DNA of 62,804 nucleotides from Actinomycetota bacterium (GCA_036007245.1 DASYOY010000118.1:1-62804); one strand, 5' to 3'. Positions 28,331-42,936 are shown, counted from the stretch's first letter. The notes: generated by a model not told the origin, from the sequence alone. A program made the numbers and translations.

Positions 28331-28744
28331 GTGACGCGCGTGGCAACGGTGCGGAAGAAGAGCAAGAGCGACTACGGCGGCATCTACAAGGGCCATCCGG
28401 GTCAATACTCCTGGATCCTGCACCGCATCACCGGCGTCGCGATCATCTTGTTCCTGTTCATGCACGTCGTCGACACCGCCTTGATCGGCTGGGGTCCTGA
28501 GGCGTACGACCGGGTTCTCCGCGCCTACCAGAACCCCCTGGTCCATCTGTTGGAACTCGGCCTGGTGATCGCCGTGCTGTACCACTCGATCAACGGCTTC
28601 AAGATCACGCTGATCGACTTCTTCCCGAAGCTCGTGAGCTACATCCGGGGCATCTCGCTCGCCGCAGCGATCGTGTTCGCGCTGGCGGCGATCCCGACCA
28701 CTGCGATCATGCTCAAGCAGACCTGGGACCTCTGGAAGGCCTAA
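28331..28744 (+). CDS. sdhC: succinate dehydrogenase cytochrome b subunit
   Basis: Three TM helices and HRITGVAIILFLFMHV heme-ligand histidines. It is the first gene of sdhCDAB. An in-frame GTG at 28340, 8 nt after GAGGAG, is a likely true start. Confidence 0.85.
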   Translation: MTRVATVRKKSKSDYGGIYKGHPGQYSWILHRITGVAIILFLFMHVVDTALIGWGPEAYDRVLRAYQNPLVHLLELGLVIAVLYHSINGFKITLIDFFPKLVSYIRGISLAAAIVFALAAIPTTAIMLKQTWDLWKA

Positions 28745-28746
28745 CG

Positions 28747-29190
28747 ATGGCGACCACGACCACGCCCCGACCTGTCCAGAACAACCCCGACCCTCGCGAC
28801 CGTCGACTCGGTCGCGAACGCCCCATCGGCGGTGGCGAGCTCTGGCTCTGGCTGTTCATGCGGATCAGCGGCCTGATCCTGATGGTGCTCGCCCTCGGCC
28901 ACCTGGTGGTCATGCACCTGATGGGCACCGGCGCGGAGCGCATCAACTTCGGGTTCGTCGCGGTCCGCTGGGCGAGCCCGTTCTGGCGCACGTGGGACTG
29001 GATGCTGCTGATGCTGGCGCTTGTCCACGGCATCAACGGCCTGCGGAACATCACGCTCGACTACGTGCAGCGCGCGGGTCTCCGCCTGACGATCAACATG
29101 CTGTCGTACGTGATCGGGTTCACCTTGATGGTGCTGGGCACGATCATCGTGGTGACGTTCGACCCCTCGAAGTGGCCGGGTGCCGTCTAG
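28747..29190 (+). CDS. sdhD: succinate dehydrogenase hydrophobic membrane anchor subunit
   Basis: 147 aa with three TM helices (LWLWLFMRISGLILMVLALGHLVVMH...), positioned between sdhC and sdhA. Confidence 0.8.
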   Translation: MATTTTPRPVQNNPDPRDRRLGRERPIGGGELWLWLFMRISGLILMVLALGHLVVMHLMGTGAERINFGFVAVRWASPFWRTWDWMLLMLALVHGINGLRNITLDYVQRAGLRLTINMLSYVIGFTLMVLGTIIVVTFDPSKWPGAV

Positions 29191-30930
29191 ATGACGACGA
29201 CTCACACGTACGACGCGCTCGTGGTCGGGGCCGGTGGCGCCGGGATGCGCGCGGCGATCGAGCTCTCCGACAAGGTCAAGACTGCGGTGATCTCCAAGCT
29301 CTACCCCACCCGGTCGCACACCGGTGCGGCGCAGGGCGGGGTGTGCGCGGCGCTCGGTAACACCGAAGAAGACCACCCCGAGTGGCACGCCTTCGACACG
29401 ATCAAAGGCGGCGACTACCTGGTCGACCAGCCCGCCGCGATGCTGATGACCGAGGAGGCCATCCAGGCGATCTACCAGCTGGAGCGCTGGGGCCTGCCGT
29501 TCAACCGGACGCCCGACGGACGGATCGATCAGCGGCGGTTCGGCGGCCACACCGCCGAGCACGGCGAGCGCCCGGTGCGACGTGCGTGTTATGCGGCCGA
29601 CCGCACGGGCCACATGATCCTGCAGACCCTTTACCAACAGTGCGTGAAGCGGAACGTCCGCTTCTTCAACGAGTTCTACTGCCTCGACCTGCTCCGCGAT
29701 GCGGACGGCACCACGGCCGGGGTCGTCGCCTACGAGCTCGCGACCGGCGAACTCCACGTGTTCCGGGCGAAGTCGATCGTGTTCGCCACCGGCGGCTACG
29801 GCCGGATGTTCCGTGTCACGTCGAACGCGCATGCGCTCACCGGCGACGGGCCGGCGGTCGTGTGGCGCCGCGGGATCCCGCTCGAAGACATGGAGATGTT
29901 CCAGTTCCATCCGACAGGTCTCGCGCGACTCGGCGTCTTGTTGTCGGAGGCGGCGCGCGGCGAGGGCGGGATCGTCCTGAACAAGGACGGCGAGCGCTTC
30001 ATGGAACGCTACGCGCCGACGATCAAGGACCTCGCGCCGCGCGACATGGTCAGCCGCGCGATCTACCAGGAGATCAAGGAGGGTCGCGGCGGCGGTCCCA
30101 ACAGCGACTGGGCATTCCTGGACATCTCGCACCTCGACCCGCGCATCATCGAGGAGAAGCTCCCCGACATCACGGAGTTCGCCCGGATCTACCTGAAGGT
30201 CGAGCCGACCAAGGAGCCGGTGCCGATCCAGCCCACCGCGCACTACGCGATGGGCGGCATCCCGACCGACACCGAGGGCCGCGTGGTCACCGGACCCGAC
30301 GAGGCGATCGTGCCGGGACTCTACGCGGCGGGCGAATGCGCATGTGTCAGCGTCCACGGAGCCAACCGCCTGGGGACGAACTCGCTGCTCGACCTCGTGG
30401 TGTTCGGCCGGCGCGCGGGCGACGACGCCGCGCGTCACGCGAAAGAAGCCGAGCTCGCGCCGCTGCCGGATACGCCCGACGCCCACGTCCTCGAGCAGCT
30501 GAACGGGATCCTCGGACGCACCAGCGGCGACAACGCCGCGGACATCCGCAAGGAGCTTCAGGACAACATGTTCGACCTGGCGTTCGTCGTGCGGTCCGAG
30601 GAAGGGCTCGGCAAGATGGAGTCGATCCTCGGCGGGCTGCGCGAGCGATATGACCGGGTCGCGATCACCGACAAGAGCGCGTTGTACAACACCGACCTGA
30701 TGGAGACCGTCGAGCTCGGCTACCTACTCGATTGCGCCGAGGCGCTGGTCAGCAGCGCCCGCGCACGGACCGAGAGCCGGGGCGGGCACTATCGCGAGGA
30801 TCATCCGCTGCGCGACGACGCGAACTGGCTGAAGCACTCGCTCGCCTATCGCAACGACGACGGCACGATCCGCTTGGAGTACAAGCCCGTGAAGATGGGC
30901 CCCTACATCCCCATGGAGAGGAAGTACTGA
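29191..30930 (+). CDS. sdhA: succinate dehydrogenase flavoprotein subunit
   Basis: 579 aa with YDALVVGAGGAGMRAA, TRSHTGAAQGG (FAD-linked His), HPTG, RGEGG and GANRLG.NSLLDLVVFG. Confidence 0.95.
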   Translation: MTTTHTYDALVVGAGGAGMRAAIELSDKVKTAVISKLYPTRSHTGAAQGGVCAALGNTEEDHPEWHAFDTIKGGDYLVDQPAAMLMTEEAIQAIYQLERWGLPFNRTPDGRIDQRRFGGHTAEHGERPVRRACYAADRTGHMILQTLYQQCVKRNVRFFNEFYCLDLLRDADGTTAGVVAYELATGELHVFRAKSIVFATGGYGRMFRVTSNAHALTGDGPAVVWRRGIPLEDMEMFQFHPTGLARLGVLLSEAARGEGGIVLNKDGERFMERYAPTIKDLAPRDMVSRAIYQEIKEGRGGGPNSDWAFLDISHLDPRIIEEKLPDITEFARIYLKVEPTKEPVPIQPTAHYAMGGIPTDTEGRVVTGPDEAIVPGLYAAGECACVSVHGANRLGTNSLLDLVVFGRRAGDDAARHAKEAELAPLPDTPDAHVLEQLNGILGRTSGDNAADIRKELQDNMFDLAFVVRSEEGLGKMESILGGLRERYDRVAITDKSALYNTDLMETVELGYLLDCAEALVSSARARTESRGGHYREDHPLRDDANWLKHSLAYRNDDGTIRLEYKPVKMGPYIPMERKY

Positions 30931-31694
30931 TGGCGACGGCGGCCGAGGCGCTCAACGCCTCCGACGACCAACGGGTGGGGAACAAGCCCGGCACGATGAC
31001 GCTCACCGTCCGGGTGCGCCGGTTCAACCCCGAGGTGTCCCAGGACTCGTGGTGGGACGAATGGACCGTCACCTGCGAGCCACTCGAGCGGCTGGTCGAG
31101 GTCCTGCACCAGATCAAGTGGCACCACGACGGCACGCTGAGCTTCCGGCGGTCGTGTGCCCACGGCATCTGCGGCTCCGACGCGATGCTGATCAACGGGC
31201 GCAACCAGCTCGCGTGCAAGGTCCTAGCCGAAGACGTCGGCCCAAAGGTCACGATCGAGCCCATCCGCGGCCTCGCGGTGCTCAAGGACCTGATCGTCGA
31301 CATGGACCCGTTCATGGACGAGTACCGCGGCGTGCTCCCCTTCCTGATCAACGACTCGGGCGAGCCCGACAAGGAGCGGCGCCAGTCACAGGAAGACCGG
31401 CACCGCTACGACGACACGACGAAGTGCATCCTGTGCGCCTGCTGCACGACCTCGTGCCCCGTGTTCTGGGGCGACGGCGGTTACGTCGGCCCCGCGGCCA
31501 TCGTGAACGCGCATCGGTTCATCTTCGACTCGCGCGACGAGGCCGGCCGCGAGCGGATGAAGATCCTGTCGGAGAAGACCGGCGTGTTCCGCTGCCGCAC
31601 GACCTTCAACTGCACCGACGCGTGCCCACGCGGGATCCAAGTGACGAAGGCGATCCAGGAAGTGAAGCGCGCGATCTTGTTCGAGCGGTTCTAG
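30930..31694 (+). CDS. sdhB: succinate dehydrogenase iron-sulfur subunit
   Basis: ATG 30930 overlaps the sdhA TGA. Cys clusters are SCAHGICGSDAMLINGRNQLAC, CILCACCTTSCP and CRTTFNCTDACP. Confidence 0.95.
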   Translation: MATAAEALNASDDQRVGNKPGTMTLTVRVRRFNPEVSQDSWWDEWTVTCEPLERLVEVLHQIKWHHDGTLSFRRSCAHGICGSDAMLINGRNQLACKVLAEDVGPKVTIEPIRGLAVLKDLIVDMDPFMDEYRGVLPFLINDSGEPDKERRQSQEDRHRYDDTTKCILCACCTTSCPVFWGDGGYVGPAAIVNAHRFIFDSRDEAGRERMKILSEKTGVFRCRTTFNCTDACPRGIQVTKAIQEVKRAILFERF

Positions 31695-31831
31695 GAACGT
31701 TCGCCTCGGCGTCGACCGCGCGCCACCTCGGCACTTGACGCGTTGCGACCGGCGGGCATACAAGAGAGGTCTCCCATGGCCGGGAGCCCTCTTCCCTTCA
31801 CGAAGAGGCCGAAGCGAGCACGGGTTGTTGC

Positions 31832-32725
31832 ATGAAGACGGAGACGCGTCATATCGCGTCCGCCGCGTTCGATTGCACGCTGTGCGGCGCCCGCCTGGAC
31901 GCCGAGCACGTGGATGTCGCAGCGGACGGTGCCCATTGCACGTTCTGCGGTGCGACGCAACGAGAGGCCACCCAGCTCGATCCCGGCGTATCGCTCGATG
32001 TCGGCGGCACCCTGCACGACGCTCGGCTCACCCGCGGCGAAACGCTCGAGCAGGCCTCGCACTTCACCCACATCCAGATCCCGTATCTACGGGCGCTCGA
32101 GCACGACCAGGCCTCGGCGTTCGATCCGTTCCCGGGCATGACATACGCGCGGTATTTCCTTCGCGACTACGCAGAGCACCTCGGGATCGATCCGCAGCCG
32201 TTGGTGCGTCGGTTCGATCGCGAGGTCACGGTTCCGCCGGTGTTGCCGGCACGGTTGCCGCTGCGATCACGACGAACGCATACCGGCCGCTGGGCGGTCG
32301 GCGGGATGGTGGTCCTGATCGCGCTGCTGGTCGCGAGCGCCGCGTGGTCGAGGGGCTATCTGCGGGCCACCCCGGCTGTGCCGTCGGCCCCGGCCGCGGT
32401 CCCCAGGACGCCGCACGCCGCAGCGTTCATCCCGCTGGTCGAGCCGAAGCCGGTGCCCACAGCAACGCGGATCGTGGCGGTCGTGCGGACGACCGGCCGG
32501 CCCTCGTGGGTCCAGGCGATGGTGAACGGCAGAACCGTGCACGAGAAGACCGTCTTGCCCGGCATCGTGCTCCGGTACAGCGCCACGCGGACGTTCGAGC
32601 TCCGGCTCGGCGATGCGGGGGCGGTGGTGCTGACGGTCAACGGGAAGAAGGTCCCGACCGGTGGATCCGGCGCGGTCGCCGATCTGTCGTTCGCCATGCG
32701 GGATGGTCGGGTGGTACGCATCTAG
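31832..32725 (+). CDS. RodZ-like protein (zinc-ribbon + HTH_25 + TM + DUF4115)
   Basis: N-terminal CTLCG...CTFCG, then LHDARLTRGETLEQASHFTHIQIPYLRALEHDQ..FPG..YARYFLRDYAEHLGIDP. One TM helix follows, and the C-terminal part reads SWVQAMVNGRTVHEKTVLPG....F.....LRLGDAGAVVLTVNG. Confidence 0.75.
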   Translation: MKTETRHIASAAFDCTLCGARLDAEHVDVAADGAHCTFCGATQREATQLDPGVSLDVGGTLHDARLTRGETLEQASHFTHIQIPYLRALEHDQASAFDPFPGMTYARYFLRDYAEHLGIDPQPLVRRFDREVTVPPVLPARLPLRSRRTHTGRWAVGGMVVLIALLVASAAWSRGYLRATPAVPSAPAAVPRTPHAAAFIPLVEPKPVPTATRIVAVVRTTGRPSWVQAMVNGRTVHEKTVLPGIVLRYSATRTFELRLGDAGAVVLTVNGKKVPTGGSGAVADLSFAMRDGRVVRI

Positions 32726-32740
32726 CGCAGGAACGCCGTT

Positions 32741-33214
32741 CTACGGAGACGCCGAGCACCCCACCACACCGACCCCCCGGTATGGCTGCCAGGTGCCGTG
32801 TTGGCGCTTGAAGTCCAGTTCCGTCCAGCCGTAGCAGCCGTACTTCCCGGGGTCTCGCCACGCGAACTGCGCGTCGACGGGATCCGAGCGGAAACCCACC
32901 GGCGCGAACACCCAGAACTGATCCCCGTGCGGGTCTCGATGCGAGACCCACGTGATCCGCTGGCTGATCGCCGCCTCGAGCGCGACCTGCAACCGAGGTT
33001 TGATGGGGCTACAGCGACGCTCGTGCGTTGGGTTCTGGCACAGCTGGTTGAGGACCTGGACCGAGTGCCCACTCGTGCTCGCCGTCGGGGTCACGAGGGC
33101 GAGCATCGCGGCCTGCGTGTCGGGGCCGCGACCGTGCAGCCCCGAGGCGGCGAACGCCGGAGACGCGAGCAGTCCGACGGCGAGTGCGGCGGCGAGGATC
33201 GAACGCTTGCGCAC
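32741..33214 (-). CDS. secreted hypothetical protein
   Basis: Counted from GTG 33214: VRKRSILAAALAVGLLASPAFA|ASG.., a 157-aa Trp/Cys-containing globular body. The rest of track ORF 32741..33679 is antisense to the IDH gene and was rejected. Confidence 0.6.
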   Translation of the reverse strand: MRKRSILAAALAVGLLASPAFAASGLHGRGPDTQAAMLALVTPTASTSGHSVQVLNQLCQNPTHERRCSPIKPRLQVALEAAISQRITWVSHRDPHGDQFWVFAPVGFRSDPVDAQFAWRDPGKYGCYGWTELDFKRQHGTWQPYRGVGVVGCSASP

Positions 33215-33304
33215 GCCGCAACGATGGCACGTCCAGCAGAAAGGCAACAACCGTCGTTCGGTCCCGACCTGAGGACCGTTGTCGGGCGGCGACCGGCGGA
33301 CGGC

Positions 33305-33310
33305 TACCCT
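33305..33310 (+). promoter_or_regulatory. -10-like TACCCT, leaderless-type (IDH paralog 1)
   Basis: TACCCT-gcaggcc-ATG 33318 (7-nt spacer). Confidence 0.3.
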
Positions 33311-33317
33311 GCAGGCC

Positions 33318-34403
33318 ATGGCGAAGCACCGCGTCACGCTGATCCCCGGCGACGGCATCGGCCCCGAGGTCGCCGAGGCGAGCCGTCTCGTGCTCGACGC
33401 CGCGGACGTCGGGATCGAGTGGATCGAGATGCCGGCCGGCGCGGGCGCCCTCGGCACCCATGGCGCGCTCTTGCCCGACGAGACCGTCGACGCCATCCGA
33501 ACGTGCCGCGTCGCCATCAAGGGTCCGATCACGACGCCGGTCGGGACGGGCTTCCGGAGCGTCAACGTCGCGCTCCGTCTGGGCCTCGACCTGTTCGCCG
33601 CGGTCAGACCCGCTCGCTCGCTGCCGGGCGTTCCCACCCGGCACGCCGACGTCGACCTGGTGATCGTCCGCGAGAACACCGAGGACCTCTACCAGGGGAT
33701 CGAGTTCGAACGCGGCTCGGAAGACACGGCGGCGCTCAAGCGACAGCTCCACGACGTCGGCGGACTCGAGCTGCTCGACGACGCCGGCATCACGCTGAAG
33801 CCCATCAGCGTGACCGGCGCGCATCGGATCGTTCGGTTCGCGTTCGAGTACGCGCGTTCACACCGCCGCAAACGCGTCACGGTCGGCCACAAAGCGAACG
33901 TGATGCGCTACTCCGATGGGATCTTCCTCGACGCCGCGATCGAGGACGCGAAGACCTACCCCGACATCGACTGGGACGAGATCCAGATCGACCATCTGTC
34001 GTCGCGGCTCGCGCGCACGCCCGAGGACTTCGACGTGCTGCTGTTGCCGAACCTCTACGGCGACATCATCTCGGACCTCTGCGCGGGGTTGGTCGGCGGT
34101 CTCGGGCTGATCCCCGGCGCGAACATCGGGTGGGAGTACGCGGTCTTCGAGGCCGTGCACGGTAGCGCGCCGGACATCGCCGGCAAGGGCGTCGCCAACC
34201 CCGTCGCGATGATCCTGTCGGGCGCGATGCTGCTCCGTCATATCGGCGAGATCGAGGCCGCCGAGAACGTCGAGTGGGGCGTCGACGAGACCCTCCGCAA
34301 GCAAGAGGTCAGGACGCCCGACCTGGGCGGGACCGCCAACACGATGCAGTTCGCCGAGGCCATCGCGGCCGAAGCCGTCGCCTGGGAGCACGGCCCGAGC
34401 TGA
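33318..34403 (+). CDS. isocitrate dehydrogenase, NAD-IDH-like small type (canonical paralog)
   Basis: MAKHRVTLIPGDGIGPEV, FRSVNVALR, VRENTEDLYQGIE, GHKANVM, NLYGDIISDLCAGLVGGLG and HGSAPDIAGKGVANP. RENTE-Y distinguishes the IDH/HICDH branch from IPMDH (RELTGG) as I recall it. Confidence 0.85.
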   Translation: MAKHRVTLIPGDGIGPEVAEASRLVLDAADVGIEWIEMPAGAGALGTHGALLPDETVDAIRTCRVAIKGPITTPVGTGFRSVNVALRLGLDLFAAVRPARSLPGVPTRHADVDLVIVRENTEDLYQGIEFERGSEDTAALKRQLHDVGGLELLDDAGITLKPISVTGAHRIVRFAFEYARSHRRKRVTVGHKANVMRYSDGIFLDAAIEDAKTYPDIDWDEIQIDHLSSRLARTPEDFDVLLLPNLYGDIISDLCAGLVGGLGLIPGANIGWEYAVFEAVHGSAPDIAGKGVANPVAMILSGAMLLRHIGEIEAAENVEWGVDETLRKQEVRTPDLGGTANTMQFAEAIAAEAVAWEHGPS

Positions 34404-34413
34404 TCGGGAAGCG

Positions 34414-34890
34414 TTACGGGGGCGCGAGCCCCGGGATCGACGCGAGCTGCGACGCGATCAGCTCGCGGTCCTCCTTGTCCTCGAGCGTGGCGAGCACCCG
34501 CCGCGCCTCCGCCGCGTAGCGGTCACGCCCGTGGTCGTCGTCGACCGCGGCAGACGCGCGCGCCATGCCCTCGAGCATCGACGCGAGCCGCCAGTCGGTC
34601 CACCCGTTCGCGCGGCAGATGTCCAGCGCCACGGTCGCGTACCGGTGCGCGAGCTCGCCCAGGTCCTCGAGGCTCGCGACGTGGGCGATCAGCCAGTCCC
34701 CCACCATCGCCTCTTCGTCGCCGCCGACCCAGCCCCAGTGGTAGCGAGACGTGAACGCGAGCGCGAGCAGCTCTCGGTCTTGTTCGGGGGTTCGGACGCC
34801 GAGCTCGATCAGCTCCCACGCGCGGTTGAATGCGTCGACCGCGACCTGCCGGTGCCACCCGGCCTGACCGTCGATCGGCTCTTCAGCCAC
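34414..34890 (-). CDS. conserved hypothetical protein (all-helical, 158 aa)
   Basis: GTG 34890 is preceded by GAGGAGGA. The product reads VAEEPIDGQAGWHRQVAVDAFNRAWELIE...SRYHWGWVG...EDRELIASQL. The upstream part of track ORF 34414..35559 was rejected. Confidence 0.7.
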   Translation of the reverse strand: MAEEPIDGQAGWHRQVAVDAFNRAWELIELGVRTPEQDRELLALAFTSRYHWGWVGGDEEAMVGDWLIAHVASLEDLGELAHRYATVALDICRANGWTDWRLASMLEGMARASAAVDDDHGRDRYAAEARRVLATLEDKEDRELIASQLASIPGLAPP

Positions 34891-34941
34891 CGTGGTCCTC
34901 CTCGCCGTGCTCGTGATGCTCGCCGTTGTGGTGGTGTTCGC

Positions 34942-34963
34942 CGGGTCCTCGACCGAGGTCCCA
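34942..34963 (-). promoter_or_regulatory. SECIS-like hairpin 12-13 nt downstream of in-frame UGA
   Basis: The mRNA can fold as U-GGG-A-CCUC[GGUC]GAGG-A-CCC-G. This gives 4+4 Watson-Crick pairs plus a closing G.U pair, one A.A mismatch, and a GGUC tetraloop (34954..34951). Confidence 0.3.
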
Positions 34964-34975
34964 CTCGGGGGTGCG

Positions 34976-35143
34976 TCAACAGCCGGGTTCTCCGTGATGG
35001 CCACAACAGCCGCGGTTGAACAGACCGATCGCCCGGTTCTTGATCGTGAGCCCAACCTTCTGCGCAACGGTGTAGTTCGGGTTCCGCCAGTTGGTGAAGA
35101 ACATCGCCACGTGCTCTCGGAGCTCGTCGCGGAAGGCGGCCAT
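34976..35143 (-). CDS. small Cys-rich protein (55 aa to first TGA; possibly 86 aa to 34883 if TGA is recoded)
   Basis: Below the ORF-track cutoff; hand translation gives MAAFRDELREHVAMFFTNWRNPNYTVAQKVGLTIKNRAIGLFNRGCCGHHGEPGC*. 45 of 55 codons end in G/C, whereas the antisense frame here has many A/T-ending codons. TACGAT lies 6 nt upstream of the ATG. Confidence 0.5.
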   Translation of the reverse strand: MAAFRDELREHVAMFFTNWRNPNYTVAQKVGLTIKNRAIGLFNRGCCGHHGEPGC

Positions 35144-35149
35144 CCAGGA

Positions 35150-35155
35150 ATCGTA
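35150..35155 (-). promoter_or_regulatory. -10-like TACGAT, leaderless-type (small Cys-rich ORF)
   Basis: The minus strand reads TACGAT-tcctgg-ATG 35143 (6-nt spacer). Confidence 0.3.
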
Positions 35156-35203
35156 CGCCGACCGTGCTTTGTCGTCGCCAGGGCGGGTGCGAGACTGCCT
35201 CGG

Positions 35204-35893
35204 ATGGAACCTCCCGGCGGCATGGAAGCCGAGCCCCGCATGGACGCGTCCGCCCCGTCTCCCCTCCGGCTGGCGGGGTTCGGACTCACCGCGCTCGGAG
35301 CGCTGGTGATCGGTGTCGGTGTGGTCCTCACGTGGGTGAGCGTGGGGCTCTCGAGCTCACAAGGGAACGTCCCGACCCAGGGCATCGATACGACCCAAGG
35401 CAAGATCGCGCTGGGGTGCGCCATCGTGACGCTGATCCTCATCATCGTCAGCAGGATCACATCCGACGCCGCGCGCGCCGTGCTTGCCGGTGTGGTCGTC
35501 GCGTTGGGAGCGTTCGCGACGGGCGCCGCGGCGATGTTCATCCGATCAGCACCGACCAACTACAACCCGGCCAACGACCCTGCGATCGTCGCACAACTCG
35601 CTACGCTGTTCGGGCAGACGCCCGATCAGATCAGAGCGGCACTCTCCGCGGAGGTCGTCACCGTCGGCCCTGGTGCGTGGATCGTGATGGTGGGTGGCCT
35701 GATGGTCATCGTGGGCGGCGTGCTGACGGTTCGTTGGGCTGCGCGCCTCAGCGCCGACCGCGCCGCATCGGAGGAAGACGCCATCGATGAGGCGGACGAG
35801 TATGCGGAACCGCCCCACGACGGCGACCCGACGGACGACCCGATGCCGGCGATGCCGGATGCGCAGGACGGCGACGAAACGTCGTTCGACTGA
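35204..35893 (+). CDS. integral membrane protein with acidic C-terminal tail
   Basis: Four TM helices (LRLAGFGLTALGALVIGVGVVLTWV, etc.) and the tail EEDAIDEADEYAEPPHDGDPTDDPMPAMPDAQDGDETSFD. Possible starts are ATG 35204, 35222 or 35240. The track ORF's N-terminal 104 aa were rejected. Confidence 0.7.
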   Translation: MEPPGGMEAEPRMDASAPSPLRLAGFGLTALGALVIGVGVVLTWVSVGLSSSQGNVPTQGIDTTQGKIALGCAIVTLILIIVSRITSDAARAVLAGVVVALGAFATGAAAMFIRSAPTNYNPANDPAIVAQLATLFGQTPDQIRAALSAEVVTVGPGAWIVMVGGLMVIVGGVLTVRWAARLSADRAASEEDAIDEADEYAEPPHDGDPTDDPMPAMPDAQDGDETSFD

Positions 35894-36817
35894 TCACAGC
35901 TTCGCCAGGTCGGCGCACTTCTCGCGGATACCCTCCGCCGCGCCATGCAGCTTGCTCAGCTCGTCTTCGTTGAGGTCGAGCTCGACGATCTCCTCCACCC
36001 CGGCTCTCCCCAGCTTCGCGGGCACACCGACGTAGACGTCCTCGATCCCGTACTCCCCCGTCGTCCACGCGCACACCGGCAGCACCGCCTTGGTGTCGCG
36101 GACGATCGCCTCGACCATCGCGACGACCGACGCGCTCGGCGCGTAGTAGGCGGACCCCGTCTTCAACAGCGCGACGATCTCCGCGCCGCCGTCGCGCGTC
36201 CGCTGGAACAAGCGCTCCAGCGTCGCGTCGTCGACGAGCTCGGGCAGGGGCTTGCCGTTGACGGTCGCGTGGCGCGGCAAGGCGATCATCGCGTCGCCGT
36301 GCGATCCGAGCGTCATCGCCTCGACGCCGGTCGTCGACACGCCGAGCTCCTCGGCGATGAAGAAGCGCAGCCGCGCCGAGTCGAGCACTCCGGCCATCCC
36401 GACGACCCGTTCCTTCGGGAACCCGGACTTCTCCGCGGCGAGGAACGTCATCTCGTCCAGCGGGTTCGACACGATGATGAGGATCGCGTTCGGCGAGCCC
36501 GGCGTGATCCTCGCGACGACGTCGGACATGATCGCCGCGTTCTTGCCGAGCAGGTCCATCCGGCTCATCCCGGGCTGACGCGGGAACCCGGCGGTGATCA
36601 CGACGACGCCACTGCCGACGGTGTCCGCGTAGTCGTTCGTGCCAACGATCGTGGGCTCGTAGCCCTCGACCGGCGCGGCTTCCTTCAGGTCGAGCGCGAG
36701 CCCTTGCGGCTTGCCCTCGATGATGTCGATCAGGACGACCTCGCCCAGGCCCTTCTCGAGCAGGCGCATCGCGGCGGTCTGGCCGACGAATCCGCTGCCC
36801 ACGACGGTGATCTTCAT
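35894..36817 (-). CDS. mdh: malate dehydrogenase (LDH-like type)
   Basis: MKITVVGSGFVGQT, and ITAGFPRQPGMSRMDL, where Arg at the substrate-specificity position indicates MDH rather than LDH. Also VSNPLD and GSHGD. AAGGAG lies 10 nt upstream. Confidence 0.92.
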   Translation of the reverse strand: MKITVVGSGFVGQTAAMRLLEKGLGEVVLIDIIEGKPQGLALDLKEAAPVEGYEPTIVGTNDYADTVGSGVVVITAGFPRQPGMSRMDLLGKNAAIMSDVVARITPGSPNAILIIVSNPLDEMTFLAAEKSGFPKERVVGMAGVLDSARLRFFIAEELGVSTTGVEAMTLGSHGDAMIALPRHATVNGKPLPELVDDATLERLFQRTRDGGAEIVALLKTGSAYYAPSASVVAMVEAIVRDTKAVLPVCAWTTGEYGIEDVYVGVPAKLGRAGVEEIVELDLNEDELSKLHGAAEGIREKCADLAKL

Positions 36818-36853
36818 GGCGGAGCGACTCCTTGCGTTCGGGAACGACCCAGG

Positions 36854-37042
36854 CTACCGAACGCCGCCCAACCGGATGCCCGCGTCGTCGTCCTCGTCAC
36901 GCACGACCCCCACGGGCGTCCGCCGCTTCGGCGGTGGATCGACCTTCACCGGGGATCCGAGCGCGGCCGCAAGCGTGGCCATCCCGAGGAAGAACACTCG
37001 CACAGGTCGGCTCTGCACCATCCGAGCGGTGACCGTCGACAT
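36854..37042 (-). CDS. possible small protein (62 aa) between membrane gene and mdh
   Basis: MSTVTARMVQSRPVRVFFLGMATLAAALGSPVKVDPPPKRRTPVGVVRDEDDDAGIRLGGVR has mostly G/C-ending codons. No recognisable family. Confidence 0.3.
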   Translation of the reverse strand: MSTVTARMVQSRPVRVFFLGMATLAAALGSPVKVDPPPKRRTPVGVVRDEDDDAGIRLGGVR

Positions 37043-37049
37043 GCCGGAG

Positions 37050-37490
37050 TCAACGGCCCAGTCGCTCGGCGAGCGTCGCGGACGGGAGACCTGCAACCAC
37101 GAGGAACGCGAGATACGCCATGAAGTGCCAGTCGTCGGGATCCGCGCCCGAAGACACGACGGTCAGCACAACGATCATCAGGACGAGGAAGACCAGATAG
37201 AAGCCGACCGCGATCAGCTTCTTGCGCTCGGTGCCGGTGCGTTCCATCCATGACGCGAGCGCGCCCTCGATCAGCACCCAACACCCACCGAAGGCCACCC
37301 CGATGATCCCCCACGAGATGATGAGCGCCGCCTGGTGCGCCGGCCGGACATGGTCGGAACCGACCGCGTAGAAGAAGACCGCGATCGCCGCCCAGGCGCC
37401 GAACAGGATCGCCGCGCGCACCCAGATCTGCGACCACGCCGAGGCGAACGGCCCAGGCGACGGCTGCGGTGCGGCCGGCACATCGCTCAT
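37050..37490 (-). CDS. integral membrane protein (146 aa)
   Basis: The real start is ATG 37490 (MSDVPAAPQ..). It has four hydrophobic helices. The track ORF's N-terminal extension overlaps the IDH paralog. Confidence 0.65.
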   Translation of the reverse strand: MSDVPAAPQPSPGPFASAWSQIWVRAAILFGAWAAIAVFFYAVGSDHVRPAHQAALIISWGIIGVAFGGCWVLIEGALASWMERTGTERKKLIAVGFYLVFLVLMIVVLTVVSSGADPDDWHFMAYLAFLVVAGLPSATLAERLGR

Positions 37491-37506
37491 GATCCGAGTG
37501 TAGGCG

Positions 37507-38595
37507 TCACAGACACGCAGCGATGGCGTCCGCGACGCCGAACGTGCCCGCGGCCGGACGGTCGTCGTCGGGTTCACGAAGGTCGAACGTGACCGAGGTT
37601 CCGTCGGCGAGCACCTCGGCGGTCGCGGCCTCGACACGATCGCCCGCCTCGACCTCGCCGATGTGGCGAAGCAACATCGCCGCCGACAGGATCACCCCGA
37701 CCGGATCCGCCCGGTTCGTGCCGGCGAGCCGCGACGCGGTGCCGTGCGTTGCCTCGAACACCGCCAGCTCCCGGCCGTCGGCTCCACCGAAGTGGGCGCC
37801 GGGCGCGACGCCGGTGCCGCCGATCAATCCGGCGCCCAGCTCGGCCACCAGGTCGCCGTACATGTTGGGCATCACGAGCACGTCGAACCGTTCGGGCGCT
37901 TGGATCAGTTGCATGCACAGCGCATCGATGATCCGGTCGTCGAACGCGATATCGGGGAAGTCCCGCGCCACCGAACGCGCCACCTCGAGGAACAAGCCGT
38001 CGGAGAACTTCATGATGTTCGCCTTGTGCGAGGCGGTGACCCGCTTCCGCCCGTGGTCGCGCGCCCACTCGAACGCGAACCGCACGACACGCTCCGACGC
38101 CGGGGCCGAGATCTCCTTCACGGAGATGCCGCTGTCGGGCCGAACCGTCTGCCCGTGCGTCGCGGCGATGAATGAGATCAGGGCCTCGACCTCCGGCGTG
38201 TCGTGCTCGAGTTCGAGCCCGGTGTACATCCCTTCCGTGTTCTCACGGACGACGATCAGATCGACCTCGTCATAGCGAGAGGGAACGCCCGGATACCGCC
38301 GGCACGGCCGCACGTTGGCGAACAGGTCGAGATCTTGCCGGAGTGCGAGGTTGACGCTTCGCAAGCCGCTCTCGGGCGGCGTCTCGACCGGGCCCTTCAA
38401 CGCCACGCGGGACGAACGGATCGCGCGCAGCGTCTCGGCCGGCAGCGGGGTGCCTTCCGACGCGAACGCGCCCGCGCCCATCGGCCGGACGTCCCACTCG
38501 ATCGCGACCCCGGTGGCGTCGAGCACCCGCTGCGCCGCTTCCGTGACCTCCGGACCGACGCCGTCGCCGGTGATCAGGGTCACGCGGGTCGCCAT
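37507..38595 (-). CDS. isocitrate dehydrogenase family paralog with degenerate metal/nucleotide motifs
   Basis: It retains MATRVTLITGDGVGPEV, LRSVNLALR, VRENTEGMYTGLE and SHKANIM. It has NMYGDLVAELGAGLIGG instead of D-x-x-x-D, and HGTASRLAGTNRADP instead of HGSAPDIAGK..ANP. Confidence 0.85.
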   Translation of the reverse strand: MATRVTLITGDGVGPEVTEAAQRVLDATGVAIEWDVRPMGAGAFASEGTPLPAETLRAIRSSRVALKGPVETPPESGLRSVNLALRQDLDLFANVRPCRRYPGVPSRYDEVDLIVVRENTEGMYTGLELEHDTPEVEALISFIAATHGQTVRPDSGISVKEISAPASERVVRFAFEWARDHGRKRVTASHKANIMKFSDGLFLEVARSVARDFPDIAFDDRIIDALCMQLIQAPERFDVLVMPNMYGDLVAELGAGLIGGTGVAPGAHFGGADGRELAVFEATHGTASRLAGTNRADPVGVILSAAMLLRHIGEVEAGDRVEAATAEVLADGTSVTFDLREPDDDRPAAGTFGVADAIAACL

Positions 38596-38603
38596 CGGGG
38601 CGC

Positions 38604-38609
38604 AGCCTA
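38604..38609 (-). promoter_or_regulatory. -10-like TAGGCT, leaderless-type (IDH paralog 2)
   Basis: The minus strand reads TAGGCT-gcgccccg-ATG 38595 (8-nt spacer). Confidence 0.3.
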
Positions 38610-38650
38610 GCGGTCACGACGTCGGTTTGGGTTCGCGCCCAACCACCCTC

Positions 38651-38656
38651 TATCCT
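38651..38656 (+). promoter_or_regulatory. -10-like TATCCT, leaderless-type (citrate synthase)
   Basis: TATCCT-ggctggc-ATG 38664 (7-nt spacer). Confidence 0.3.
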
Positions 38657-38663
38657 GGCTGGC

Positions 38664-39782
38664 ATGAGTGAGAAGGGCCTGCGGGAGATCAACGCCGCCG
38701 ACACGCAGATCTCCGATATCGACGGCGAGGCAGGCCGCCTGTGGTACGTGGGCTACACGATCGAGGATCTGGCCGCCCATGCCTCGTTCGAAGAGACCAT
38801 CTATCTGCTCCACAAGCTCGAGCTGCCGAACCGTCAGCAGCTCCAACAGCTCAATACCTTCTTGGTACGCGAACGAGAGCTCCACCCGTTCCTCGCGCGG
38901 CTGATGCCGACCCTGGCACAGAACGCCTCTCCGATGTCGATGCTTCGAACCGGCCTGTCGGCCTCGAGCGCCTTCGACCCGGACGGTTGGGACGACTCCC
39001 CCGAGGCCGAGTACCGCAAGGCCCTCCGCCTGATCGCGGAGACGCCGACCCTGATCGCGACCTTCGACCGGCTCCGGACCGGCCGCGAGATGATCCCGCC
39101 GAACCCCGAGCTCAGCCACGCTGGCAACCTCCTGTGGATGCTCCACGGCGTCGAGCCCGACCCCGACGACGCGAAGGTGCTCGACACGACGTTCGTGCTC
39201 TACGCCGACCACACGATGAACGCGTCGACGTTCACCGCGCGGGTCATCGCCTCGACGCTGTCGGACATGTTCTCGGCCATCACCGGGGCGGTCGGCGCCC
39301 TGAAGGGCCCGTTGCACGGCGGCGCGAACGAAGAGTCGCAGAAGATGGCCGAAGAGGTCGGCAAGGCCGAGAACGCCGAGGCCTACGTCCGCGAGCGGCT
39401 CGCGAACCACCAGAAGATCATGGGGTTCGGTCACGCGGTCTATCGCACGATGGATCCGCGCGCGCGGATCTTGAAGGAGCTCTGCCGGCAGCTCGGCGAA
39501 CGGGTCGATCAGCCGCAGTGGTACGAGATCTTCAGCGCGCTCGAGGAGACGACGATGGAACAGAAGGGTCTCTACCCGAACGTCGACCTCTACGCCGCCG
39601 GCGTGTACCACATGCTCGGGATCCCGACCGACCTGATGACGCCGCTGTTCGCGCTCGCGCGGATGGCCGGCTGGACGGCGCACGTGCGGGAGCAGTACGC
39701 GGACAACCGGATCATCCGGCCCGGCTCGACGTACGTCGGCCCGCGCGACCGTACGTACGTCTCGATCGACGAACGCGCGTGA
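38664..39782 (+). CDS. citrate synthase (short, ~370-aa type)
   Basis: 372 aa with YADHTMNASTF, GALKGPLHGGANE, GFGHAVYRT.DPRA and NVDLYA..Y..LGIP....TPLFA.AR..GW.AH..EQ. Confidence 0.93.
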   Translation: MSEKGLREINAADTQISDIDGEAGRLWYVGYTIEDLAAHASFEETIYLLHKLELPNRQQLQQLNTFLVRERELHPFLARLMPTLAQNASPMSMLRTGLSASSAFDPDGWDDSPEAEYRKALRLIAETPTLIATFDRLRTGREMIPPNPELSHAGNLLWMLHGVEPDPDDAKVLDTTFVLYADHTMNASTFTARVIASTLSDMFSAITGAVGALKGPLHGGANEESQKMAEEVGKAENAEAYVRERLANHQKIMGFGHAVYRTMDPRARILKELCRQLGERVDQPQWYEIFSALEETTMEQKGLYPNVDLYAAGVYHMLGIPTDLMTPLFALARMAGWTAHVREQYADNRIIRPGSTYVGPRDRTYVSIDERA

Positions 39783-40291
39783 CGCGTCGGCGTCGAACCC
39801 TCTTCATCGCCATCCTCGCGCTGGTCGGCGCCACGCTGTCGCCAACCGTCGCGATGGCGAGCTCCGTGCGCGACAGCAAGGAGTACGGGACGAGGTACGA
39901 CATCCGGTACACGAAGCTCGTGCGTCCGGCTCCCCACACCTTGTTGTGGACGATCAAGACCTGGGGAACGTGGAAGAAGGCGCCGTCCTCACAGAGCCCG
40001 CTCACCCTGCAGCTCGACACGAGCGGAACGACAGCGCCCGACTACACGGTCGCGATCTTCACCGACCCGCACAAGAACGGGCAGTACTGCGAGCTCCGCC
40101 GCCCGACCCAGAAGGTCATCCGCCAGGGGATGCTGCGTCGTCCCGACCGCTCCTCGGCGACGTGTCGCTTCTCGACGAAACGCATCCGCTTCAAGCGGCT
40201 CCATTGGAAGGCCTCGATGTTCATCCGGCTCACGCTCGCGGGACCGGTCATCGACGACGCGCCGGACTCGGGCTGGATCGACGGCGTCTAG
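39779..40291 (+). CDS. secreted hypothetical protein
   Basis: GTG 39779 overlaps the citrate synthase TGA. The product is VTRRRRTLFIAILALVGATLSPTVAMA|SS.., 170 aa, basic and Trp/Lys-rich. The rest of track ORF 38741..40291 was rejected. Confidence 0.6.
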   Translation: MTRRRRTLFIAILALVGATLSPTVAMASSVRDSKEYGTRYDIRYTKLVRPAPHTLLWTIKTWGTWKKAPSSQSPLTLQLDTSGTTAPDYTVAIFTDPHKNGQYCELRRPTQKVIRQGMLRRPDRSSATCRFSTKRIRFKRLHWKASMFIRLTLAGPVIDDAPDSGWIDGV

Positions 40292-40308
40292 CAGCGCGCA
40301 CTTCGTCG

Positions 40309-41229
40309 TCAGCCGACGGGGCGCGGCAGCAGCCCCGCGCGCGTGACCAGATCCCAGGTCACCTCGTCGTGACCCATCGCCATCACGTGGATCCCGGCGA
40401 TACCGGGGATCGCACGGATCTGCTCGATCAACGGTGCAACCAACTCGACGCCGATGCTCGCGGCGTCGTCGCCTGCCGCGTCGAGCGCGGCGATCATGTC
40501 CGCCGGAACCGAGACCCCGGGGAGCTTCTCGTCCATGAACCGCGCCTGCTTCGCGCTCCGCAGCGGGGTCACGCCGATCACGACCTTCGCGCGTTCGAAG
40601 AGTCCCCAGTCGCGCATCCGGTCCGCCCACGCCGCGAGCGCACGGACGTCGTACACGATCTGCGTGATGACGAAGTCCGCGCCCGCGTCCAGCTTCGAGC
40701 CGAGCTTGGCCGGGTCGTACGGATCTGCGAGCGGCACGTCGGCCACACCGATCAGATACCGGGGCGGATCTGCGAGGTCGGCGCCGGCCAGCGACGTGCC
40801 CTCGTCGCGGAGGCGCTTCGCCAGCGCCACCACGTCGTTGACCGTGAGATCCCCCACGACGACGGCGTCGGGATGGTCCCCGACGTGCAGCGGGTCGCCC
40901 GAAAGGCAGAACACGTTGCGCGCGCCCAGCGCCCACGCGCCGAGCAGATCGCTCGTTAACGAGAGCCGGTTCCGGTCACGGACCGTGAGCTGGACCGTCG
41001 GCTCGATCCCGGCCGCCGCGGCGGCGGCGACCCCGGCCAACGGGGACATGTGCGCCGAGGCGGTCGGGTTGTCGGTGAGATTGACGGCGTCGACCGACCC
41101 AACGAGCGCCACCGCGTGCTCGCGGACGGGCGCGAGGGACCCGCCGGCCGGCGGCACGATCTCACCGGTGACGGTGAACGCGTTCCGCGCGAACAGCGCG
41201 GCCAGGTGGCCGCCGATCTCGGTCGTCAT
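40309..41229 (-). CDS. metF: methylenetetrahydrofolate reductase (MetF family)
   Basis: ATG 41229 overlaps the folD TGA (ATGA). The 306 aa include VTGEIVPP, VDAVNLTDNP, VRDRNR, FCLSGDP, ADFVITQ.VYD and GIHVMAMG. Confidence 0.8.
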   Translation of the reverse strand: MTTEIGGHLAALFARNAFTVTGEIVPPAGGSLAPVREHAVALVGSVDAVNLTDNPTASAHMSPLAGVAAAAAAGIEPTVQLTVRDRNRLSLTSDLLGAWALGARNVFCLSGDPLHVGDHPDAVVVGDLTVNDVVALAKRLRDEGTSLAGADLADPPRYLIGVADVPLADPYDPAKLGSKLDAGADFVITQIVYDVRALAAWADRMRDWGLFERAKVVIGVTPLRSAKQARFMDEKLPGVSVPADMIAALDAAGDDAASIGVELVAPLIEQIRAIPGIAGIHVMAMGHDEVTWDLVTRAGLLPRPVG

Positions 41230-42104
41230 CCCTGCGCGAAGGCCTGCGCCTCGGCAGCCTGCACCGTGTTGACCATCAGCATCGCGACGGTCATCGGACC
41301 GACGCCGCCCGGTACGGGGGTGATCGCGCCCGCGACCTCGGCGACCTCGTCGAACTTCACGTCGCCGATCAGCCCGTCCTTGGTCCGGTGCACGCCCACG
41401 TCGAGGACGGTCGCGCCGGGCTTGATCATCTCGGCCGTGATCAGGTGCGGGACGCCCGCAGCGGCGACCACGATGTCGGCCTCGAGCGTGTGCGCCGTCA
41501 GGTCCTTGGTCCGGATGTGTGTGGACGTGACGGTGGCGTTCCCACGGATCGAATCCTGCGTGAGCATGACCGACAGGGGCGCGCCGACCAGCTCGCCGAA
41601 CCCCACGATCGTGACCTCGGCGCCCTCGATCGGGATCTCGGCGCGGAGCAGAAGCTCGACGATCCCATAGGGCGTCGCCGGCAGGAAGCACGGCCCCTGC
41701 CGAAGCATCATCCCGATGTTCCACGGGTGCAGACCGTCGACATCCTTCTCGGGCGCGACCGCGCGCTGGATCTCGAGCTCGTGCAGATGGCTCGGCAACG
41801 GGAGCTGCACGATGATCCCGTGGATCTCGGGGTCACGGTTGAGCCGCCGGATCGTCGCGAGCAACTCGTGCTCGGTGACATAGGACGGCAGGTCGACCTG
41901 CTCGGAGCGGATCCCCACGTCGGCGCACGCCTTGTGCTTCTGACCCACGTAGATGCGAGAGGCCTGGTCGTCGCCCACCAGGACGGCGGCCAGGCCGGGG
42001 GTGATCCCGGTCTCGGCGAGCGCGCGTACCCGCTCGGCCACCTCGCTACGGATCTGGGCCGCGATGGCCTTTCCATCGAGGATGCGGGCGGTCACGGCGA
42101 GCAT
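41226..42104 (-). CDS. folD: bifunctional methylene-THF dehydrogenase / methenyl-THF cyclohydrolase
   Basis: ILDGKAIAAQIR, PGLAAVLVGDD.AS..YV..K.KAC..VGI, GIIVQLPLP, DVDG.HP.N.G, ATP.G and PVPGGVGPMTVAMLM. Starts are ATG 42104, or GTG 42095 if TAGGAT (42103..42108) is its -10 box. Confidence 0.92.
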   Translation of the reverse strand: MLAVTARILDGKAIAAQIRSEVAERVRALAETGITPGLAAVLVGDDQASRIYVGQKHKACADVGIRSEQVDLPSYVTEHELLATIRRLNRDPEIHGIIVQLPLPSHLHELEIQRAVAPEKDVDGLHPWNIGMMLRQGPCFLPATPYGIVELLLRAEIPIEGAEVTIVGFGELVGAPLSVMLTQDSIRGNATVTSTHIRTKDLTAHTLEADIVVAAAGVPHLITAEMIKPGATVLDVGVHRTKDGLIGDVKFDEVAEVAGAITPVPGGVGPMTVAMLMVNTVQAAEAQAFAQG

Positions 42105-42159
42105 CCTACCGGCCGGGGAAGGCCTCCAATGCGATGCGCCGTTGCAGCGCACCGCGGAA

Positions 42160-42184
42160 CCGGGCGCGGTGACTCAGCGCCCGG
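42160..42184 (-). promoter_or_regulatory. hairpin CCGGGCGC-N9-GCGCCCGG with the stop codon of the small upstream ORF in its loop
   Basis: An 8-bp perfect stem read from the sequence. The TGA at 42176..42174 lies in the loop, 55 nt upstream of folD. Confidence 0.3.
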
Positions 42185-42308
42185 AACGGCGGCGGCGCTT
42201 GCGGCGCCGGGTGGAGCTGTGATCACGGTGGCGAGCGGCTGCTCGCCGCCTCGAGGACTCGAGTTGGTTGAACTCCTCGAGCCGGTACCAGGACGACGGG
42301 GGCATCAT
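42174..42308 (-). CDS. possible 44-aa highly basic small protein / upstream ORF of folD-metF
   Basis: GGAGGAGG (42324..42317) lies 8 nt upstream of ATGATG 42308. The product is MMPPSSWYRLEEFNQLESSRRRAAARHRDHSSTRRRKRRRRSGR*. 37 of 44 codons end in G/C. Below the ORF-track cutoff. Confidence 0.35.
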   Translation of the reverse strand: MMPPSSWYRLEEFNQLESSRRRAAARHRDHSSTRRRKRRRRSGR

Positions 42309-42372
42309 CTTGCGCACCTCCTCCGGTCGGGGGTATCATTCATCTCGACGTGAAGATACTCTATCTCGAAGT

Positions 42373-42397
42373 TTGATGTCAAGAGATTTGAGCTCAA
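42373..42397. promoter_or_regulatory. two tandem palindromic operator-like sites (TTGA-N2-TCAA) upstream of marR
   Basis: TTTGATGTCAAGAGA and TTTGAGCTCAAGACA form a 15-bp direct repeat. The cores are TTGATGTCAA (42373..42382) and the perfect palindrome TTGAGCTCAA (42388..42397). They lie in a conspicuously AT-rich stretch 24 nt upstream of the MarR ATG. Confidence 0.45.
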
Positions 42398-42420
42398 GAC
42401 ATAGGGAAGGAGCAGGGACG

Positions 42421-42936
42421 ATGACCCCACCCTCCACTCGGAAGGACTCCATCGACCGGTTCGTCGACTCCTCGCTGGCGCTGTTCCCCGGCGTCGATCC
42501 CGAGACCGAGGCCGCGGTGGACCGGATCCACATGCTGTCCAAGCGCATCAAGCGCTCGACCGAAGGCGTCGTCGCGCGGTTCGGGCTGAACGCCGGCGAG
42601 TTCTACGCCCTGTTGAAGCTCCGCGTCGCGCCGAACCAGCAGATGTCCGCTGGTGACCTGGCCGAATTACTCGACCTGTCGACCGGCGCGATGACGAACC
42701 GGCTCGACGGCCTCGAGGAGCACGGCCTGATCACCCGGGAGCGAGCCGCGGCCGATCGTCGGAGCGTGCTCGTCGCGATGACACCCAAGGGGCAAGAGAC
42801 GCTCGTCAACGCCGTCGAGGCCGCCGGCAAGGAGGAGCACGCGCTCTTCTCGACGTTGAGCGAGGCGCAGCACCGCCAGCTCAACGCGCTGCTGCGGTCG
42901 CTGGTGCTGACCTTCCAAGATCCCGACGACTGCTAG
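42421..42936 (+). CDS. MarR family transcriptional regulator
   Basis: ATG 42421 follows GGGAAGGAG. The 171 aa include the winged-helix core MSAGDLAELLDLSTGAMTNRLDGLEEHGLITRERAAADRRSVLVAMTPKGQE. Confidence 0.85.
   Translation: MTPPSTRKDSIDRFVDSSLALFPGVDPETEAAVDRIHMLSKRIKRSTEGVVARFGLNAGEFYALLKLRVAPNQQMSAGDLAELLDLSTGAMTNRLDGLEEHGLITRERAAADRRSVLVAMTPKGQETLVNAVEAAGKEEHALFSTLSEAQHRQLNALLRSLVLTFQDPDDC

Follow-up and report, generated by a model that had tools for sequence, protein, structure and literature searches.

Comparative Sequence Evidence That a Small Cys-Rich Gene Family of Actinomycetota Very Probably Encodes Selenoproteins

Introduction

The recoding of an in-frame UGA as selenocysteine (Sec) by way of SelB and a selenocysteine insertion sequence (SECIS) has been verified experimentally for Escherichia coli fdhF, whose SECIS has a bulged U in its stem and a loop in which a G and a U contact SelB. 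Among the Actinomycetota formate dehydrogenase (FDH) is usually taken to be the main or only selenoprotein. The present work concerns a 62.8-kb stretch of DNA from an Actinomycetota bacterium (GCA_036007245.1 DASYOY010000118.1:1-62804; 62,804 nucleotides, referred to in what follows as the window) and, within it, a small Cys-rich gene at 35143..34883 on the minus strand that contains an in-frame TGA followed by a hairpin with a GGUC loop. Comparison of this locus with its relatives makes it highly likely, in our estimation, that the gene encodes an 86-residue selenoprotein in which UGA is decoded as Sec. It very probably belongs to a previously uncatalogued family of small selenoproteins with a Cys-Cys…Cys-Sec arm, usually a His-rich tail, and a compact SECIS with a GGUC loop.

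A number of described systems provide points of reference. Animal thioredoxin reductase carries a C-terminal Gly-Cys-Sec-Gly redox center. Closer to the organism of interest, the fdnG gene of Tsukamurella contains an in-frame TGA and adjoins selD, tRNA-Sec, selA and selB. For mycobacteria FDH has been reported as the single selenoprotein, with the Sec machinery carried by ∼40% of genomes (PMC13449736). A 2026 inventory lists 119 prokaryotic selenoprotein families, each of them linked to a model in Pfam, NCBIfam or InterPro (PMC13188914), and the deep-Sep method predicts an uncharacterised family of 78-residue selenoproteins in Actinomarina (bioRxiv 10.64898/2026.04.03.716425).

Results and Discussion

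Layout of the Locus

The gene and its immediate surroundings comprise the following features.

35150..35155, minus strand: -10-like hexamer TACGAT, ending 6 nucleotides short of the ATG, as read from the sequence
34979..35143, minus strand: first 55 codons of the small open reading frame (ORF), MAAFRDELREHVAMFFTNWRNPNYTVAQKVGLTIKNRAIGLFNRGCCGHHGEPGC, starting with ATG 35143; this is the portion annotated by gene callers
34976..34978, minus strand: in-frame UGA, the proposed Sec codon, in a UGA-C context directly 3' of Cys55
34942..34963, minus strand: SECIS-like hairpin U-GGG-A-CCUC[GGUC]GAGG-A-CCC-G, with the loop GGUC at 34954..34951, 24 nucleotides from the U of UGA
34886..34975, minus strand: 30-codon extension, RTPEWDLGRGPGEHHHNGEHHEHGEEDHGG, encoding first the hairpin and then a His/Asp/Glu/Gly-rich tail
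34883..34885, minus strand: stop TGA of the long form, within GTGGCTGA, overlapping the GTG (34890..34888) of the next gene
34414..34890, minus strand: downstream gene of 158 amino acids, all-alpha, no family match

The elements from which recoding had originally been predicted at this site were all recovered when the sequence was read again. ATG 35143 leads through 55 codons, 45 of them ending in G or C, to TGA 34978..34976; the frame then stays open for 30 codons up to the second TGA (34885..34883) inside GTGGCTGA; the extension lacks an in-frame ATG, GTG or TTG; and both the TACGAT 6 nucleotides upstream of the ATG and the hairpin at 34963..34942 are present as described. Within the extension G or C occupies the third position in 24 of the 30 codons and the second position in 13.

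Conservation of the UGA Codon

Relatives of the gene were scanned for in one genome per GTDB species and were obtained in 399 species-level genomes, nearly all of them metagenome-assembled genomes (MAGs) of Actinomycetota. From these, 80 loci were kept (L001-L080), and counts over 81 loci given below refer to these 80 together with the window. The codon that follows …PGC is TGA in 81 of 81 cases (76 loci were read first and the other 5 added separately, the window being among the 81), so that homologs never end in another stop at this column, in support of the Sec or readthrough recoding that had been proposed. By comparison, the orthologs of mdh, icd1 and icd2 in the same loci stop at TGA in 52 of 179 cases (29%), switching freely among TGA, TAG and TAA, and the second stop, which closes the extension, is also variable (TGA 50, TAG 24, TAA 7). 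The uniformity of the first TGA against this background argues that it is under selection. The context is UGA-C in more than 90% of the loci.

The Hairpin 3' of the UGA

The GGUC hairpin of the window had been singled out for its fdhF-like spacing, and across the family its loop is kept, its stem covaries and its spacing takes one of two values. The apical loop reads GGUC in 80 of the 81 loci and GGUU in L066. Counted from the U of UGA, the GGUC loop starts at nucleotide 21 in 37 loci and at nucleotide 24 in 39, the window included; in the 5 loci that remain beyond these 76 (GGUC in 4, GGUU in 1) the start is again always at nucleotide 21 or 24. This loop is presented by 27 distinct stems, CCUC/GAGG, ACCCC/GGGGU, AUCCC/GGGAU, GCUCC/GGAGC and GAGCCC/GGGCUC being examples. 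Alignment gives a stem of 8 base pairs, with double compensatory changes in 6 of the 8. The cells of the stem are paired in 86.9% of cases as against 81.0 ± 0.8% in shuffles, the covariation score was reached by 0 of 500 shuffles, and control registers slid by 1-3 columns show 30-63% pairing. Pair 7-20 is often mismatched inside the stem (A·A, A·G or A·C), as it is in the window, where it is A·A.

The hairpin is conserved beyond what the peptide read from it, D-[LP]-G-R-G-P, would require. All 81 loci use GGT for the Gly codon in the loop, compared with 8.4% of the Gly codons in neighboring genes. Where Leu is replaced by Pro (CUC to CCC) the change is accompanied by a synonymous one, CGA to CGG, on the opposite strand of the stem. 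Beyond this family, the window and the loci contain no other TGA with a GGUC hairpin and no in-frame TGA between coding-like stretches; the scan otherwise returned ordinary gene junctions, and site 10205 of the window does not share the frame of the real gene there.

Coding Signal Beyond the UGA

All 81 loci continue beyond the TGA with an open frame of 12-34 codons, the minimum being approximately the length that the hairpin needs. Of the three frames, that of the extension holds 257 His codons (CAY) and the remaining ones hold 30 and 22, and after residue 10 the tail consists of 32% His, 14% Gly, 14% Asp, 11% Pro and 10% Glu. An in-frame ATG, GTG or TTG is absent from the extension in 74 of 81 loci. 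The coding signal in this frame and the lack of a start within it in these 74 loci agree with the original prediction that the His-rich tail can be read only by decoding the TGA. We have also looked for the contrary picture, in which homologs stop at this codon with unconserved sequence downstream and a hairpin that does not covary; what is found is a conserved frame and a covarying hairpin.

In the clade of the window (12 loci) the tail is 22-34 codons long, and in 11 of these loci an ATG or GTG in the frame of the downstream gene lies 4-10 nucleotides upstream of the tail stop, as ATGGnTGA or GTGGCTGA, the only exception being L006, which has no canonical start near the tail stop. As the start stays near the tail stop while the tail itself varies, the distance from the first TGA to this start changes by multiples of three only.

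Homologs with Cys in Place of the UGA

A search for homologs carrying Cys or TGA in this column, which had been suggested together with the prediction, yielded TGC and TGT forms that continue into a His-rich tail. Four cluster representatives have Cys at the TGA column and a His/acidic tail, namely P0145 (TGT), …EPGCCVGPDGSGSDPHDHDHDH; P0166 (TGC), …DPGCCIATEDCSIDFENGEHSH; P0174 (TGC), …EPGCCISSGSHASGDAHPHDHQH; and P0179 (TGC), …EPGCCEGSSAKGHHHGEEEDVEK. The hairpin is absent in three of these four and in the fourth there is a hairpin with a GGUU loop. Their genes sit in contexts other than that of the TGA form.

Two further entries show Trp at the Sec column (P0167, which is L089, and P0194, which is L088). 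These were rejected as replacements, the gene caller having translated TGA under a code in which TGA is Trp, and they could mislead searches for non-Cys replacements. L089 is a distant relative on a contig of 42% G+C that has kept the TGA, with GGUC at nucleotide 24, and the putative Sec form therefore extends beyond the high-G+C actinobacteria. In L089 (6394..7344) the TGA-form gene lies among carotenoid genes and near a gene of the 2-thiouracil desulfurase/DUF523 type, a family listed among known selenoproteins; the proximity may be coincidental.

Comparison with Known SECIS Elements and Selenoproteins

The element resembles that of E. coli fdhF, which in the sequence that we retrieved reads UGA…GCA[GGUC]UGC with GGUC at nucleotide 21, the corresponding position in the small family being 21 or 24. 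In both cases there is an in-frame UGA-C and a hairpin immediately 3' inside the reading frame. The two differ in that the protein of the small family is unrelated and tiny, in that no lower stem is detected in its hairpin, and in that its 8-base-pair stem frequently has a mismatch at pair 7-20 where fdhF has a bulged U. Tsukamurella fdnG, from the same phylum, has the SECIS GGUUCCC[GGUCU]GGGAGCC, again with GGUC at nucleotide 21, which closely resembles members of the small family such as GGGGUUCC[GGUC]GGAGUCCC. Its product is, however, a 1000-residue molybdoenzyme whose gene clusters with selD, selC, selA and selB, whereas the small gene is near no sel gene.

At the level of the protein there is a resemblance, and no more than that, to animal thioredoxin reductase: the proposed Gly-Cys-Sec, carried by a C-terminal arm that is probably flexible, would by analogy allow a selenenylsulfide. 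The small family differs in having G-C-U-R/Q/E, in lacking a flavoprotein domain and in that the motif is not penultimate. Short chains, vicinal Cys-Sec and extra Cys pairs are also seen in the SaoC ('Cys-Cys-COOH'), MbdU, KCU-star and Csac_0668 families (PMC13188914), which like it are presumed to bind metals or metalloids. In the small family, by contrast, Sec would be internal and followed by 12-34 residues, and its N-terminal FFTNWR helices and its CCGHHGEPGC motif set it apart from the CU selenoproteins of the inventory. Neither the full-length protein with Sec changed to Cys nor the four Cys homologs gave a relevant Pfam or NCBIfam match at E<=10, so that none of the 119 families, as represented by these models, is matched (PMC13188914). 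The Actinomarina family (bioRxiv 10.64898/2026.04.03.716425) is similar by description alone, as it is small, unannotated, from Actinomycetota and free of database matches; it differs in being marine and of ∼33% G+C DNA, and the comparison is by description since the preprint text gives no sequence. A literature search found the motif strings of the family in no indexed paper.

Points Against and Alternative Explanations

Several results weigh against the assignment of Sec and of a SECIS. Genes for selA, selB, selD and tRNA-Sec were found neither in the window nor in ∼1.4 Mb of flanks from the 80 genomes, as judged from tblastn searches of the window and all loci with the SelA, SelB and SelD of E. 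coli and Tsukamurella, which gave no matches. ARAGORN reported no tRNA gene of any kind in the window or in 60 syntenic loci of 5-20 kb, and in a protein database search with SelA only Mycobacteriales occurred among the best 120 matches listed, none of them tied to MAGs that carry the family. When folded alone the hairpin of the window is not unusually stable for DNA of 70% G+C (z = +0.9), with 164 of 200 shuffles folding at least as well. It is thus not beyond chance in the window itself, and its significance rests wholly on the comparison with the 80 other genomes. The covariance-model search for a SECIS that the original prediction had called for came back negative, with no match to the Rfam models (RF01988-RF01991 and RF00031) over the whole window at the gathering score, where indeed no Rfam family of any kind matched, or over 34850..35050 at E<=10; this is a weak test, because the FDH-shaped SECIS_3 gives only 31 bits even on the true actinobacterial fdnG SECIS. 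Conversely, a covariance model built from 65 sequences of the family (R1) finds neither the fdhF nor the fdnG SECIS above noise, so that the likeness to known elements rests on loop and spacing read directly, with no model score. Finally, one subclade has a short tail of 15 codons that is not His-rich and is often without His, and the His-rich part is therefore accessory, not a universal functional part.

Among the other explanations, one builds on Sec decoding and asks more of it. The UGA and its SECIS would jointly form a selenium-gated translational switch within an island of genes for the tricarboxylic acid (TCA) cycle, one that controls the downstream 158-residue gene as well. With selenium the 86-residue form with Sec and the His tail would be made and without it a 55-residue form ending in Cys, and in the clade of the window ribosomes would gain the overlapping start GTGGCTGA of the 158-residue gene only upon decoding of the UGA. 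If this were so, expression of the 158-residue gene would be coupled to selenium supply and the small protein could be a new Cys/Sec/His metal or redox sensor of central metabolism. Taken as a whole we regard this extended scheme as rather improbable.

A second possibility is that translation truly ends at the TGA, with the hairpin serving as an mRNA element for stability, termination or regulation and the frame downstream left untranslated. Gene callers and NCBI do annotate proteins of 50-60 amino acids that end at the TGA, the hairpin is often found in a short convergent spacer before icd1, a plausible place for a terminator, and the window and flanks yielded no Sec machinery. However, an intrinsic terminator was considered and rejected, as the stem is followed by GGCGAACACC with no T-run and a terminator scan gave no terminator-like site at the hairpin, and in the clade of the window a gene comes directly after. 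A true stop would moreover leave without explanation the invariant TGA and the fixed GGUC at a fixed in-frame distance, the frame-locked His codons, and the homologs in which a Cys codon leads on into a His-rich tail. The comparative data thus make a stop followed by a structured spacer, which had been listed as an alternative at the outset, distinctly unlikely, and we give it little credence.

Much the same small chance is assigned to UGA readthrough independent of SelB and of selenium, in which a leaky UGA-C, with help from the hairpin, would accept a near-cognate tRNA (Trp, Cys or Arg). The prevalence of UGA-C fits such a mechanism, all of the evidence for translation of the tail fits it equally well, and no Sec machinery was found in the window or the flanks. 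What sets Sec insertion apart is the loop and its distance from the UGA, which match proven or annotated SelB-dependent elements, and the replacement of TGA specifically by Cys codons, the classical Sec/Cys pattern, the apparent Trp forms being TGA read under another genetic code. A sequencing error, a pseudogene or a separately initiated His-rich mini-ORF hardly deserves consideration: a few frameshifted or deleted variants exist in the databases (P0018, P0124, P0148), but error and decay, both raised with the prediction, are excluded by a TGA that recurs in 81 independent assemblies and by the exact protein context of the window, which is present in dozens of metagenome contigs, and a mini-ORF is opposed by the lack of an in-frame start in 74 of 81 extensions.

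Proposed Decoding and Properties of the Product

With Sec decoding as the preferred explanation, the path of expression can be sketched, SelB dependence, selenium incorporation and biochemical role being what we infer from the sequence comparison. The mRNA is probably leaderless. At UGA 34978..34976 the hairpin, 13 nucleotides on, would present its GGUC loop to SelB·GTP·Sec-tRNA(Sec); Sec would be inserted, the codons of the hairpin (W-D-L-G-R-G-P) translated, and synthesis continued through the His/acidic tail to the stop at 34885..34883. Failure of Sec insertion would release a 55-residue form that ends in Cys. The full product is predicted to have two basic N-terminal helices, then a flexible arm, C46-C47-G-H-H-G-E-P-G-C55-U56, and then the His-rich tail, so that the arm would bear two vicinal chalcogen pairs and two His. 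From this pattern of residues our best guess is that the protein binds a soft metal or metalloid or takes part in thiol/selenol redox reactions.

In an AlphaFold2 model of the 55-residue part, residues 2-20 and 26-42 are predicted to form helices and the Cys-rich C-terminus a coil of low confidence; the model as a whole is also of low confidence, with a predicted local distance difference test score (pLDDT) of 65. Profile scans to E<=10 and a PDB sequence search gave no Pfam, NCBIfam or PDB relative of the protein.

The Small Gene as a Conserved Family

A search of protein databases returned 49 clusters of ∼50-60 amino acids, all of them unnamed and all from Actinomycetota MAGs or metagenomes. 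They share the pattern FFTNWR…NR…CCG[HN]HG[EQ]PGC, at the end of which all members of the 49 clusters terminate, and the residues F16, T17, N18, W19, R20, N36, C46, C47, G48, H50, G51, P53, G54 and C55 are invariant. When a profile of the family was run against 1.84 billion cluster representatives, 397 of them matched at E<=1e-3, and …PGC is the exact C-terminal end in ∼137 of the best 150 of them. To judge by its sequence the 55-codon ORF is a real, conserved gene.

Selenoproteins are systematically mis-annotated. In hundreds of genomes and many metagenome contigs a hypothetical protein of 50-60 amino acids is called where the real product is probably one of 70-90 amino acids with Sec. If uncultured soil lineages do have a second widespread selenoprotein family, the dependence of these abundant bacteria on selenium would have to be estimated anew. 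The family offers a model system for a compact SECIS (8-base-pair stem, GGUC loop) with rich natural covariation, as well as a Cys-Cys…Cys-Sec…His scaffold of minimal size on which to study metal or redox chemistry, and its signature, in which the TGA is fixed, the Gly codon GGT runs against the bias and the His codons are frame-locked, can be reused in the search for other short selenoproteins.

A few database forms depart from the pattern. In P0018 an in-frame deletion joins the N-terminal helices straight to WDLGRGPGEHH…, with loss of the CC…C-Sec arm, and P0124, P0148, P0169, P0190 and P0192 are frameshifted; these may be assembly errors or natural variants. The top match of the profile search, P0050, is a repeat protein of 1747 amino acids with 28 matched stretches (…GHHGDTPREVCQPQ… repeats) and seems to match spuriously, through low complexity or its repeats, without being a relative. 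On one contig, L019, there are two convergent copies of the TGA-containing gene, at ∼8881 (plus strand) and ∼10046 (minus strand), ∼1.1 kb apart, and the MAG CAWAPY01 has copies on two contigs, L018 and L020 belonging to the same observation as L019. Such duplicates could be paralogs, strain variants or an effect of assembly.

Gene Neighborhood and the Downstream Gene

The small gene lies within a TCA-cycle island at 28331..42936 of the window, which includes sdhCDAB. The order is sdhA, sdhB, a RodZ-like gene, the Iso_dh gene icd1 (plus strand), the 158-residue gene (minus), the small gene (minus), a Trp_oprn_chp membrane gene (35204..35893, plus), mdh (minus), a gene of 195 amino acids (minus) and a second Iso_dh gene, icd2 (minus), after which come citrate synthase, folD and marR. 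Nearly all of the 80 loci, down to 44% protein identity, show the same arrangement icd2 → mdh → small gene ← icd1, with the family between genes for malate dehydrogenase and an isocitrate-type dehydrogenase. In some loci the small gene starts ∼20 nucleotides past mdh. Of the 80 loci, 60 have a TANNNT hexamer that begins 10-14 nucleotides before the chosen start codon, which suggests that the gene has a promoter of its own giving rise to a leaderless mRNA.

The 158-residue downstream gene is confined to the near clade of the window, where it is present in L001-L008, L012, L014 and L016. Its translation appears to be coupled to that of the long form, whose stop overlaps its start in the window. 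Its product has no Pfam, NCBIfam or PDB match. AlphaFold2, run on the single sequence, predicts 7 helices, and the TPR/Rap-like folds returned by Foldseek have a best E-value of 0.08, which is non-significant, so that the protein can be described as all-alpha and, weakly, as TPR-like on the basis of the model.

Two long ORFs obtained mechanically also cover the locus, 34414..35559 on the minus strand (381 amino acids) and 34892..35893 on the plus strand (333 amino acids). Both are open frames of G+C-rich DNA that merge real genes, the 158-residue gene and the 229-residue Trp_oprn_chp gene with its start at 35204, with non-coding frame.

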